DNA of 14,490 nucleotides. Source: a virus. Taxonomy: Duplodnaviria; Heunggongvirae; Uroviricota; Caudoviricetes. Positions 3,001-6,000 of the stretch are shown in pieces. A program made the position numbers. Numbering within the stretch: position 1 is the stretch's first letter; each line of letters opens with the position of its first letter. The stretch is taken from the IMG/VR virus record IMGVR_UViG_3300015174_000009, one strand, 5' to 3'.

Positions 3001-6000
3001 GACCGTTTCCGGCATGGCGGCATATTCATCACGCAATACCCCCAGCTGGCTGATTAACGCAGGAACGACTTTATCCGCCGTCAGTTTGCCGTCGTCCGCC
3101 ATCGCCTTAAGGTCTTTACGGGCCACGCCCATACCCGCAGCCAGTGCACGTACGATCCGGTCTCCGCTTTCATTGACCGAATTAAATTCCTCACCGCGTA
3201 ACACACCCTGTGCCAGCGCCTGGCTGAACTGGGTGATCACCGAGCCCGCCTCTGCCGTACTGGCACCGGAGATTTTCAGCCCCGTGGAAATGGCCTCCGT
3301 CACCTTCAGCACATCATCAGCACTGTAACCATATTCACGCATTGAGGCTGCCGAGCGGGCAAACAGGGCCGCATTATCTGAAAATGCCGTGCCCGTCCGC
3401 TGGCTGATATCCATCAGCACTTTCTGTGATGACGAAAATTCATCGGATGACTGCGACGCCTGTTTCAGTCGGGCATTCACGGAACTCCATTCATCGGCCA
3501 GAGAAATCAGGTGTCCGGTGGCAAAGGCACCTGCAAATGCCCCCGCCGTTCCGGCAGCTGAAGCGCGGATTTCCGTCAACTGGCTGTTCAGCTCAGCCAG
3601 GGCGCGTCGCTGCTCCCGGGCGACTGCGGCAGCCTGACGCCCGCCATTCTGCAGGGTCCGGTAATATTCACTGCCCATGCGGGAAGCCCGCTGGATCTCC
3701 GACTGGAATGACTGCGAATTTGCCGAAATTTTGATAATCAGTTCACGTAACGTCGCCATTCACCTTTCTCCGGGCGTAAAAAAACCGCCTCAGCGGTTCT
3801 CATCATTCATGACTGTGCTGCAAAGCTCAGCGCGTCTTCCAGCGCCGCAAACGGATCCACCTCCGGCTTATCCTCATCCTCGCCCCAGCAGAGCATGGCG
3901 TCCTTCAGTGCAACATTCATCCCCTGTGCCCCAAAAACCGCTTTCACGATCTGTGCATTACGGATATCCCCGCGCTCATCACCCAGCGGGGATACCCTGT
4001 CGAACTCCATCCACATCATCGCCTCGCTCACACTCAGGCTGTGCCGCAGTTCGGATAAGGTGCGCCCCAGACGGAGCGCAAGTCGCATCAGAAAGCGAAT
4101 TTCCGGGCGGGCTACTTTTTTCTGGCCGACTCTGCATCAGCGATCAGTTCCAGTGCCTGACGCAGCAACCGGGCATGTACCGGACCATAGACGGCCAGCA
4201 CCTGCTCACGGTCGTCCGGAGCGAACACCCGCTGCAGATCCGTATCACACAGGACATCGCAGAACAGCGTCACATCCGCTTCCAGGTTACGGCGGGTTTT
4301 CGCCACCACCGACAGGGTATCGTCATCCTCTCCATCACCATTGAGCACTTCCTGCCACAGATACCAGGCCTCTGCCGAAGGCTCCCGCAGCACCACGCTG
4401 ACATTACCCCATTCCGGCACCTTCACCGTTTTATGACGAAACCCTGACAGTCTGGCCAGCGCCAGCGTTTTCAGATCCTTTTTCATGATGACCCATCCCC
4501 TTATCCGGCGGCTGCGCTCACTGTCACGGTGCATTCAACAGACGTCACACTCTGTGCTTTCTCTGCCGAATCGGTCACCACGCAGGTATATTTCCCCGCA
4601 TCAGCGGACTGCGCACCTGGCTTACTGAAGGTGTCTGTCGTCTGCCCGTCAACCGGCTGACCATCCTTCTTCCAGGCGTATTTATACGGCGGCGTTCCCC
4701 CGTTGGCACTGACTGACATTGTCAGCAGCGCACCTGTATTCACGGTAAGTGTTTTATCCAGATTTTTCACAAACGCCAGCGGTACCACAAAGGACACCGG
4801 TTTGCCTTTCATACGCAGTGAAAACGTTGCTGCCACCACGCCGTTGGTACCGGATGACCAGGTGTGCTGACGCACTTCCGCCAGGAACTTAAAGCCCTTA
4901 CCGGACGGAAACAGCACCTTAAACGCATACAACGCGTCATTGTCATAGGCATCACGCAGGGCGTTCTGGGCCTGATTCAGATAAAAATTACCCGACATGG
5001 AAATCTCAGACGACGCCCCCAGACCGTTGATGTTCTCCTGCTCGGTGGAGCAGAGCGTGGTCACATCAATATCCTGTTTCTGACCGGCGGTGAACTGGAC
5101 TTCCTTGATGGTGCAATCCAGGCGCAGATATTCCGCCTTATCCATAGTTTCAGCAGTCGCCGGGGCAGATGAAATCATCACCTGCGTCAGCTGTGAGCGT
5201 TCATACAAAGCAGACATTCTGCCTCCTGATAATAAAAAACCCGCACGCGGCGGGGTATGGTTTTGTAGAAAAAAGAAAAAGTCACACCGTGACCTGAAAC
5301 TCCAGGGTTGCACGGTAACAGCGGTTTTCCGGAATATAGTCCTGCATTTCACTGACGGATCCCGGGGCCAGCAGCATTATGGCTTCACGGGCGTCCTGAC
5401 GTATCTGACGCGCCTGCGTCACAGTCCCGGCATAAACGTCTATCTGCACCGACACTGAGGACTCCGCCTGCCCGCCCATCACGTCCGCTGACACCGATGA
5501 AATCAGGCTGAAAACCACCCACGGAAGCGCCACCGACGGCCTGCCATCCAGCAGGGGGACCACATACGGGTACACCTGCCCGCCGGCAAGATGCGCCAGA
5601 TGAGGATACAAATCCGCCTCCGTCATCGTCTCAGTACCTCATCAATGGCCCGGTTCATCCGCGCAATCGCCACCTGAGCTGCCTGTTCACTGCGCACATC
5701 AAACGCCGGGCGCACAAACGGGTGCGGTGGCATATTCACGGTCCCCATTTCCACAAACCGCCAGTAGAAAGCATTGCGCGGGTTATCCGCCTTCATAGTG
5801 TTATCGCTGTTACCGGTGTCCGGATTAACACCCCGGATATGGACACCGGATTCCATCCCGCCATCGCGGGAGCGCCGGGAAAGGATCACCACATTGCGGC
5901 GCAGTTTTCCCCTGCGTACCGGTGCCCGTGACACCACTTCTTCTTTCAGCACATTCGCACCCGCACGGGTTGCCTCACGCAGCACCCGGTTATTTTCCGC

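Follow-up and report, generated by a model that had tools for sequence, protein, structure and literature searches.

In HK97, the gene 15 moron lies between the tail chaperone and tape measure protein (TMP) genes and carries its own promoter and terminator (PMC3594210). In HK633 (JQ086377, 8401..8425), the depositors annotated a rho-independent terminator after the gp15 (YebO-like) moron. The hairpin described here, element C, is on the same strand and in the same place as that terminator, directly before the ribosome-binding site (RBS) of a homologous TMP gene, and shares its design of a GC-rich stem of 6–7 bp, a loop of 4–6 nt and a run of 7–8 T. The stem arm differs (AACCGC here, ACCCGC in HK633). 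An additional YebO-like ORF, equipped with its own promoter, precedes the terminator in HK633 and HK97, whereas here the slot is an empty 47 nt with no predicted promoter.

Two regulatory systems offer further parallels. Lambda tR′ is likewise an intrinsic terminator inside a Q-governed unit, at which polymerase is expected to stop without Q modification and to read through with Q; however, tR′ lies close to its promoter and gives rise to a short RNA (6S, or StxS in the case of Stx phages), whereas element C, which has no known RNA product, is flanked by structural genes some 10 kb inside the operon. The insulator terminator of Tn916 similarly prevents premature expression of the element's genes by transcription that is unscheduled or comes from outside, and is overridden by a dedicated antitermination system (PMC11658703). 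Tn916 is a different type of element, and its terminator stands at its end, whereas element C, the function of which we infer, is internal.

The window, that is, the whole stretch of 14,490 nucleotides that was analysed (IMG/VR record IMGVR_UViG_3300015174_000009), is a late-gene module of long-tailed Stx-type lambdoid prophages. Sakai prophage Sp10 has the same module, with the Q antiterminator gene upstream on the same strand and the equivalents of element C and of two further hairpins described below, A and B, at about 1,957,997-1,958,022, 1,950,279-1,950,300 and 1,956,549-1,956,572, respectively, of NC_002695.2 (+ strand). For strain Sakai, Term-seq data have been deposited (GSE143631). 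The T–TMP junction itself occurs in 1,245 of 5,426 complete E. coli genomes, or about a quarter, at up to seven copies per genome. Around the junction, the window contains the following features:

4112..4486, minus strand: tail assembly chaperone gene G (Pfam Phage_TAC_1)
4121-4115, minus strand: −1 slippery heptamer A AAA AAG, just before the G stop codon
3807..4136, minus strand: T reading frame, −1 relative to G and open from 4136 (Pfam Phage_tail_T; frame analysis)
3809-3807, minus strand: T stop codon TGA, 8 nt ahead of hairpin C
3798-3777, minus strand: element C, AACCGC-TGAG-GCGGTTTTTTTA (exact pattern match, RNA fold, and conservation and covariation in relatives)
3798-3793, 3792-3789 and 3788-3783, minus strand: 5′ arm AACCGC, loop TGAG and 3′ arm GCGGTT of element C
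3771-3763, minus strand: TMP RBS GGAGAAAGG, directly 3′ of the U-run (sequence)
3759-3757, minus strand: TMP start codon ATG (sequence)
517..3759, minus strand: TMP gene, 1080 aa (ORF; Pfam Phage_HK97_TLTM, TMP_3 and Tape_meas_lam_C)

The spacer between T and TMP (3760-3806, 47 nt) consists of the hairpin and U-run followed by the TMP RBS, the CCGGAG of which is kept across relatives. No ORF lies inside this gap, and a simple consensus scan of the whole window predicted no sigma-70-like promoter on its minus (coding) strand. The initial annotation had reported an AACCGC-N4 motif in this spacer, ahead of the RBS and of an ATG at 3757-3759, and the sequence reads as it described.

Element C lies on the transcribed strand, past the stop codon and outside coding sequence, and its stem, loop and uninterrupted U-tract 3′ of the stem are those of an intrinsic terminator (stem of about 5–14 bp, loop of 3–8 nt). 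The stem has 6 bp, four of them G-C pairs, and can be extended to nine pairs by the flanking GAG/UUU; folding gave a ΔG of about −7 kcal/mol for the core (−7.1) and of up to −10.3 for the extended form. Seven consecutive T (3784-3778) are followed by an A at 3777. Two of these T can pair with the 5′ AA, and only five U separate the stem from ACGCCC.

Judged from its sequence, element C is probably a Rho-independent (intrinsic) transcription terminator within the TMP 5′ leader. In the lysogen, RNA polymerase without Q modification, arriving from moron promoters, from spurious promoters or by read-through, would stop at element C, and this stop would keep the TMP and distal tail genes silent. 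Upon induction, Q-modified polymerase would read through. The hairpin would then remain in the polycistronic mRNA and may also serve as a barrier to 3′ exonucleases for the upstream V-G-T segment. Several observations speak against a terminator: the hairpin is weak, no coding-strand promoter is predicted in the window, and about a quarter of relatives do without the element. Loci that have lost the T-run and keep only the hairpin hint that the hairpin alone may have value, and its constant nearness to the RBS could also point to a role in translation.

Relatives were sampled at one genome per species, which gave 62 distinct T–TMP loci. A hairpin with a T-run was found 14–24 nt upstream of the TMP start in 47 of the 62, against a background of 0.96% of windows; on the opposite strand there were no such calls. 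Across relatives the hairpins use many different stems with clear compensatory changes. Close relatives keep the structure through a G·U change and a change in both arms (ACCGC/GCGGT to ACCTGC/GCAGGT), also behind a different T allele, and have T-runs of 7–8 residues. In an independent MAFFT/RNAalifold run, the element C helix was the only one recovered, with 98.6% of cells paired (34–55% in slid controls) and double changes in 15 cells, compared with 2.8 ± 1.3 in shuffles (0 of 500 reached 15). Because its position is conserved and its stem has changed in a compensatory manner, the comparative data indicate that the structure of element C is under selection. The initial annotation had also proposed a selected function, on the grounds that the motif occurs twice in one operon; selection on the hairpin is borne out by position and compensatory change, not by the double occurrence. 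In the great majority of loci the T-run is conserved together with the hairpin, which favours a terminator, as a hairpin acting purely on stability would not need one; a few loci keep the hairpin and have lost the T-run. About a quarter of the related prophages, those with gaps of at most 28 nt, have no hairpin at this junction, and it is therefore dispensable.

A single-sequence fold of phi467 had suggested a long-range helix that hides the TMP RBS. We rejected this candidate, as the alignment fold of 113-nt leaders gave good support to the terminator hairpin only; the same fold also returned a poorly kept helix within the coding sequence of T and another of 4 bp, in whose loop the Shine–Dalgarno sequence lies. 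Sakai Sp15, with a TMP of another kind (lambda-type) and without a hairpin where T meets TMP, is uninformative here.

The T–TMP junction is the HK97 gene-15 moron slot, which is empty in the present phage. Relatives with T–TMP gaps of 277–1127 nt carry ORFs there, and this cargo is diverse and closed by a terminator. Of 26 loci in which additional ORFs separate T from TMP, 25 have the terminator, as have about 20 of the 24 loci whose gap is 32–47 nt. Hairpin and RBS form a unit for which filled and empty slots are homologous (TTTTTTTACGTCTGGAG versus TTTTTTTACGCCCGGAG). As to the parts of a moron, the present locus has a factor-independent terminator at the 3′ end, namely element C, but no inserted gene and, in the minus-strand consensus scan, no promoter of its own. 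Element C corresponds in position to the terminator at the close of the moron slot in HK97-like phages; here, terminator and RBS remain alone.

Given such a slot, element C might be a vestige, that is, a terminator left behind by deletion of a moron and now functionless in this phage. The diverse, terminator-closed cargo found elsewhere would fit, as would the empty slot and the missing coding-strand promoter prediction here. Yet about 20 independent empty loci keep an intact hairpin and T-run with compensatory changes, and the persistence of the hairpin in an otherwise empty spacer is hard to square with neutral decay in compact phage genomes. We therefore regard a vestige as improbable. More speculatively, the terminator may be no moron remnant but a resident part of the TMP leader that acts as a docking site for new genes and, with the other spacer hairpins, as part of a punctuation system, a proposal we put forward only tentatively. 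A ready-made 3′ end upstream of an intact RBS would allow newly acquired genes to be expressed in the lysogen while the tail genes stay off. If true, this would explain the diversity of cargo at the junction, and the four spacer hairpins together would keep the late operon silent without Q; it would add mechanistic detail on how morons build up at particular junctions, an incremental step rather than a new kind of system.

Taken as an ordinary terminator hairpin, kept at the same spot in many related prophages, element C is of value mainly for annotation; in the E. coli genomes that carry the T–TMP junction, the hairpin is unannotated. It makes the T–TMP moron slot easy to locate and, in related prophages, marks a likely site of accessory genes expressed in the lysogen, which are candidates for superinfection exclusion or defence.

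A terminator hairpin can also be the 3′ end of a small RNA, and the isrK model of Rfam (RF01394) matches 3845-3778 end to end, with 27.1 bits and E = 0.018 for the window. On this reading, the end of the T mRNA would give rise to a small RNA that binds Hfq and is related to Salmonella IsrK, and element C would form its 3′ end. A hairpin with a U-tract is the usual 3′ end of Hfq-binding RNAs, and IsrK, the Hfq-binding small RNA of Gifsy-1, does end in a similar terminator, with an ACCGC/GCGGU-like stem and a U-run. However, the score is far under the 50 bits of the gathering threshold. Among relatives, the model matches other terminators, and T–TMP hairpins match, in place of isrK, other families that end in a terminator. 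In Gifsy-1, isrK has a different context, just downstream of a Q-like gene (antQ), and for Sakai Sp9, Sp10 and Sp12 the Hfq-CRAC table shows no peak at T–TMP, TerL–capsid or pre-tail-tube junctions. Kinship with IsrK is thus extremely unlikely and largely refuted, the sub-threshold match being a terminator artefact, and weak Rfam small-RNA matches at phage terminators should not be taken as small-RNA genes. Two sets of known EHEC small RNAs were also considered and set aside: EcOnc22, EcOnc23 and EcOnc24 map to the I–J spacer, antisense, and HnrS (EcOnc10-12), although described within late genes, lies between the Rz and HNH/TerS genes, antisense, just past the end of the window.

Element C is not the only hairpin in the spacers of the late operon:

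11197-11176, minus strand: element A, AACCGC-TCCG-GCGGTTTTTTTA, in the 63-nt spacer between TerL and the protease-capsid gene (pattern match, terminator scan, RNA fold)
9186..9207, minus strand: strong GC-rich hairpin ACGGGAGGC-GTGC-GCCTCCCGT without a T-run, in the spacer (44 nt) downstream of the protease-capsid gene (gap listing, fold)
5269..5295, minus strand: second, upstream element B hairpin, AGGTCAC-GGT-GTGACTT followed by TTTCTTTTTT, overlapping the orf114 stop (terminator scan)
5254-5234, minus strand: element B, CCCGC-CGCGT-GCGGG with six T, in the spacer (64 nt) that precedes the gene for the major tail protein (terminator scan, sequence)

The initial annotation had presented the hairpin before TMP as the second copy of a sequence-conserved module that it placed at 11160-11222. 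The same stem is indeed found there: a search of the window for the pattern AACCGCNNNNGCGGTTTTTTTA gave two hits and no more, each on the minus strand (3798-3777 with loop TGAG, 11197-11176 with loop TCCG), and A agrees with C at 21 of 23 positions (GAACCGCT..GGCGGTTTTTTTA). Both fold into hairpins of 6–9 bp. A duplicated or mobile module, homogenised within the operon for a common specific function, would account for this identity, for a local alignment score of 19 that exceeds the maximum of 500 shuffles (15), and for the absence of the pattern from all 200 dinucleotide-preserving shuffles, even with two mismatches allowed. The relevant null for the repeat, however, is not random sequence but two intrinsic terminators with a common stem. 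The repeat is improbable for random sequence but not under this null, where the chance of a common 6-nt arm is about 0.10 per terminator pair and rises to about 0.27 when any two of three terminators may agree. As a stem arm of such terminators, AACCGC ranks with the commonest; AACCGC stems also precede TMP in several other genera, and the unrelated phage contexts with the exact motif number at least 100. Pairwise alignment found no likeness between A and C outside the 23-nt hairpin, and the two sites vary independently in relatives, the T–TMP site having changed to the ACCTGC/GCAGGT stem where the TerL–capsid site keeps ACCGC. Likeness that ends at 23 nt and sites that change separately are not what a dispersed repeat or mobile module of the REP or MITE kind would show.

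With the motif in more than 100 unrelated contexts and an arm coincidence of roughly one in ten, the description as a second copy is unsupported. We consider copies of one module very unlikely; the common stem probably reflects two terminators built on a very common stem. The initial annotation had held that a high frequency in non-intergenic contexts would mark the motif as chance or generic. It is generic, yet its occurrences are mostly at gene boundaries, just ahead of an RBS, which is consistent with a generic functional class, that of intrinsic terminators, rather than a chance sequence.

Element C is the weakest of the three terminator hairpins A, B and C. By a d'Aubenton-Carafa-type score it is borderline or negative, whereas A, B and the terminators of HK633 and mEp390 are positive. 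A weak hairpin would suit partial termination, and element C could in principle attenuate transcription during lytic growth, with some polymerases stopping even with Q and the expression of TMP and the distal tail genes lowered relative to tube and chaperones. The position fits the stoichiometry, as many copies of V and G are needed and few of TMP. But elements of this kind also precede the genes for capsid and tail tube, the two proteins made in the largest amounts; attenuation there would be counter-productive, and Q-modified polymerase is highly terminator-resistant. We hold attenuation to be unlikely.

Attenuation would be a senseless role for a terminator in front of the capsid or major tail gene, and a common role at the RNA level is attractive for that reason. 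Intercistronic hairpins are known to stabilise segments of polycistronic mRNAs, for example the malE-malF REP and the hairpins of the puf operon. Like these, element C is a spacer hairpin between highly needed upstream and less needed downstream genes, and it is possible, if doubtful, that it is mainly a stability or processing element of the Q-antiterminated transcript, with termination incidental. The hairpin would block 3′-to-5′ exonucleases, so that V-G-T would outlive the TMP and distal tail segment and protein ratios would be set accordingly. All four late-operon spacers of at least 44 nt hold a hairpin, including the one after the capsid gene without a T-run; a few relatives keep a T–TMP hairpin without its T-run; and the T region, translated only by frameshifted ribosomes, is exposed. 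However, the thermodynamic stability of hairpin C is low for a stabiliser, whereas the malE-malF and puf hairpins are usually more stable and have no U-tract. An exonuclease barrier does not need a T-run, and the one at element C is conserved in the great majority of loci.

The terminator-like hairpin at 5254-5234 and the fourth hairpin at 9207-9186 had been missed in the initial annotation. Element A is followed by TTTTCAGGAGGCTGATGTG (capsid-fusion start), and in relatives its variants differ in the loop or keep the pairing. Element B is followed by ATTATCAGGAGGCAGAATG, with the major tail protein ATG at 5217-5215, and is conserved in relatives; its upstream companion hairpin has a compensatory variant, GATCAC/GTGATC, in one related locus (L256).

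All long ORFs of the window lie on the minus strand and make up a phage late (structural) operon, the DNA of which is 95–100% identical to the structural module of long-tailed Stx-converting lambdoid phages (2851, YYZ-2008, 1717 and BP-4795 among them).

Genes of the late operon
13444-12881, minus strand: small terminase
12884-11223, minus strand: large terminase
11159-9222, minus strand: prohead protease–major capsid fusion
9010-6749, minus strand: portal
Between portal and major tail protein, minus strand: four small head–tail genes
5217-4501, minus strand: major tail protein
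4486-4112, minus strand: tail chaperone G
4136-3807 (open), minus strand: T, in the -1 frame
3759-517, minus strand: tape measure protein (TMP)
After TMP, minus strand: tail protein M, last in this order

Just ahead of the G stop codon, at 4121-4115 (minus strand), is the slippery heptamer A AAA AAG, a canonical site for -1 programmed frameshifting, and translation of T therefore depends entirely on ribosomes that shift frame there; this G/GT organisation of the tail chaperone is the conserved one. Of 5,426 complete E. coli genomes, 1,245 carry the junction of T and TMP, in as many as 7 copies each. In prophage Sp10 of E. coli O157 Sakai, the same module is located downstream of a Q antiterminator gene on the same strand; Q controls the operon in at least one sequenced host. 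The portal, one intact ORF in the window (6749-9010, 753 aa), is annotated as two CDSs in Sp10 (ECs_1974 and ECs_1975; L438 5967-8551), suggesting a frameshift in the Sakai copy.

Read on the coding strand, the spacer between T and TMP is TGA-ATGATGAG-AACCGC-TGAG-GCGGTTTTTTT-ACGCCC-GGAGAAAGG-TGA-ATG, in agreement with the coordinates, RBS and TMP start codon of the initial annotation. Its hairpin and T-run (element C), at 3798-3777, is one of exactly two matches to AACCGCNNNNGCGGTTTTTTTA in the window; the other is at 11197-11176, and both are on the minus strand. No match arose in 200 shuffles, and both copies fold into the expected hairpin. Among close relatives (80 from IMG/VR, plus phi467 and PhiR49_2), the site takes four hairpin forms, with a T-run of 7–8 in every case.

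Hairpin forms at the T–TMP junction of close relatives
Form 1: AACCGC-TGAG-GCGGTT
Form 2: AATCGC-TGAG-GCGGTT, with a G.U pair
Form 3: AAACCTGC-NNNN-GCAGGTTT, changed on both arms and also found behind a different T allele
Form 4: AACCGC-TTCG-GCGGTT, in phages with flanks only ~72% identical

In more distant phages whose TMP belongs to the same family, a hairpin and T-run again stand immediately before the TMP RBS (for example AAAACCGC-TTAG and AACCTGC-TTCG in Klebsiella phages, ACCCGC-TATCAA in HK633 and GCCCGC-GGCT in mEp390); a Vibrio phage with this TMP family lacks them. Scanning one genome per species across Enterobacterales yielded 68 prophage loci, 62 of them distinct. A hairpin and T-run ending 14–24 nt upstream of the TMP start was called in 47 of the 62, against a detector background of 0.96% of windows in the same loci and no calls on their opposite strand. 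These hairpins use at least 15 different stem sequences. When 28 diverse leaders were analysed independently with MAFFT and RNAalifold, the element C helix was the only one recovered, with 98.6% of cells paired (34–55% in slid controls) and compensatory changes in 4 of 5 pairs; double-change cells numbered 15, compared with 2.8 ± 1.3 in shuffles (0/500). By this comparative evidence, both the hairpin and the U-tract of element C are conserved and the hairpin covaries; the element lies on the transcribed strand as part of the TMP leader, and its conserved position and compensatory changes show that hairpin and U-tract are under selection. An alignment fold suggested a tentative, very small helix of 4 bp, CGCC/GGUG, at 3757-3776 (minus strand), which would place the TMP Shine–Dalgarno GGAG in a loop of 8 nt; in phi467, one of its pairs is U-A in place of C-G, a covarying change.

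The initial annotation had taken element C for the second copy of a repeated module, the repeat suggesting a selected function. This interpretation is supported in part. A real hairpin under selection stands, as position and covariation in relatives indicate. The reading as two copies of one module does not: the motif is generic, its arm common, the two sites vary independently and only 23 nt are alike. The exact motif AACCGC-N4-GCGGTTTTTTT is abundant in other phage contexts, occurring in at least 120 stretches of the viral collection; among the matches listed, only ~20 are A or C sites of the window's phage family, ~100 lie elsewhere, usually right upstream of an RBS and start codon, and several precede other TMP genes. 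Of the 6-nt arms in 37 independent T–TMP terminators, AACCGC and GCCCGC occur most often; the chance of a shared arm is ~0.10 for two terminators and ~0.27 for any pair among three. Sp10 has ACCTGC at C and keeps ACCGC at A, and in variants of element A the changes fall in the loop or on the outermost pair; the two sites therefore vary independently. A and C most probably have the same stem because both are examples of a widely used terminator form.

A terminator scan combined with a gap listing placed a hairpin in all four operon spacers of at least 44 nt; at the other junctions, spacers are 14 nt or less or genes overlap.

Hairpins in the long operon spacers
11197-11176, minus strand: element A, 63-nt spacer between large terminase and capsid fusion
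9207-9186, minus strand: strong GC hairpin without T-run, 44-nt spacer after the capsid fusion gene
5295-5269 and 5254-5234, minus strand: element B, two hairpins, each with a T-run, 64-nt spacer before the major tail gene
3798-3777, minus strand: element C, 47-nt T–TMP spacer

By hairpin energy and U-tract, element C is the weakest of A, B and C. Similarity between A and C is confined to the 23-nt hairpin (21/23 positions identical) and is less extensive than that between A and B, whose alignment spans ~48 nt and takes in the flanks, the T-run and the RBS (TTTTTTATTNTCAGGAGGC; score 25 versus 7.5 ± 1.4 in shuffles, maximum 16). The aligned capsid fusion and major tail leaders (11161-11207 and 5218-5262, minus strand) share AACCAT.AC, the stem, T6-7 and ATTNTCAGGAGGCNGA, and could be a duplicated terminator-plus-strong-RBS cassette or the product of convergence. 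The tandem hairpins at 5234-5295 form a third terminator-like site in the window; the upstream one overlaps the orf114 stop codon, with a compensatory variant, GATCAC/GTGATC, in one relative. The 9-bp, GC-rich hairpin at 9186-9207 (ACGGGAGGC-GTGC-GCCTCCCGT), directly after the protease–capsid fusion gene, resembles an element that stabilises the mRNA 3' end of the most highly expressed gene. A further GCGGTTTTTTT, at 11230-11240 (minus strand) in the last large-terminase codons, 30 nt upstream of element A, has no matching 5' arm and is flanked by a short inverted repeat, ATATG/CATAT.

HK97 gene 15, the first moron, was defined at the T–TMP junction and has its own promoter and terminator (PMC3594210). 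Sorted by the distance from T stop to TMP start, the prophage loci fell into three classes.

T–TMP junction classes
28 nt or less: no room; terminator-like hairpin absent
32-47 nt: hairpin and RBS only; ~20 of 24 canonical, 4 with the hairpin kept and the T-run decayed
277-1127 nt: one or two extra ORFs; hairpin in 25 of 26, directly before the TMP RBS

These ORFs (loci L083-L155) are mostly co-oriented and mutually unrelated, and include YebO/gp15-like proteins, Zn-ribbon membrane proteins, several lipoproteins, a VasI-like protein, a 296-aa TPR protein and several orphans. The junction is a hot spot in other Enterobacterales prophages, where it holds small cargo genes of diverse kinds, each closed by the terminator; superinfection exclusion and defence are candidate functions for them. 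In HK633, the hairpin, annotated by its depositors as a rho-independent terminator, follows a gp15 homologue before TMP, whereas in the window the slot is empty. The window's hairpin–RBS unit, TTTTTTTACGCCCGGAG, is recognisably homologous to the filled-slot unit TTTTTTTACGTCTGGAG of Leclercia and Enterobacter prophages, which implies that the unit travels with the TMP gene and that cargo is placed upstream of it.

Together, these features mark element C as a predicted intrinsic terminator of the ordinary kind already annotated in HK97-like phages; only its widely conserved position, documented here, and its persistence in empty moron slots are new. RNA polymerase not modified by Q would terminate at element C, and after induction polymerase would read through. 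This role would be most evident at junctions whose upstream cargo genes have promoters of their own. Against termination, no coding-strand promoter was predicted in the window, hairpin C is weak and a quarter of relatives lack the element. All the long operon spacers hold a hairpin, in one case lacking a U-tract, which makes it plausible that element C also serves as a 3' barrier on the mRNA in lytic growth, a role compatible with termination. Attenuation is less likely: it would suit element C but not its counterparts upstream of the capsid and tail tube genes.

We also considered an isrK-like small RNA. The Rfam isrK model matches 3845-3778 at 27.1 bits (threshold 50); it does not match the relatives' T–TMP hairpins, hitting other terminators instead, and those hairpins match rsmX or Leu_leader equally weakly. 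IsrK itself lies just downstream of the Gifsy-1 Q-like gene. In Sp9, Sp10 and Sp12, junctions A, B and C are all without a site in a catalogue of Hfq cross-linking made on uninduced Sakai cells; the catalogue bears on the uninduced state, and a small RNA made only after induction would be beyond its reach. We rejected this candidate on its sub-threshold score, different context, unmatched relatives and lack of an Hfq site in uninduced cells, and nothing supports a small RNA at the junction. EcOnc22 and HnrS map elsewhere, antisense. In Sp10, HnrS (EcOnc10-12), an Hfq-bound sRNA, runs antisense to the late operon, with the Rz endopeptidase gene on one side and the HNH/small terminase genes on the other; colinearity with Sp10 (L437/L438) would put it ~120 nt beyond position 14490.
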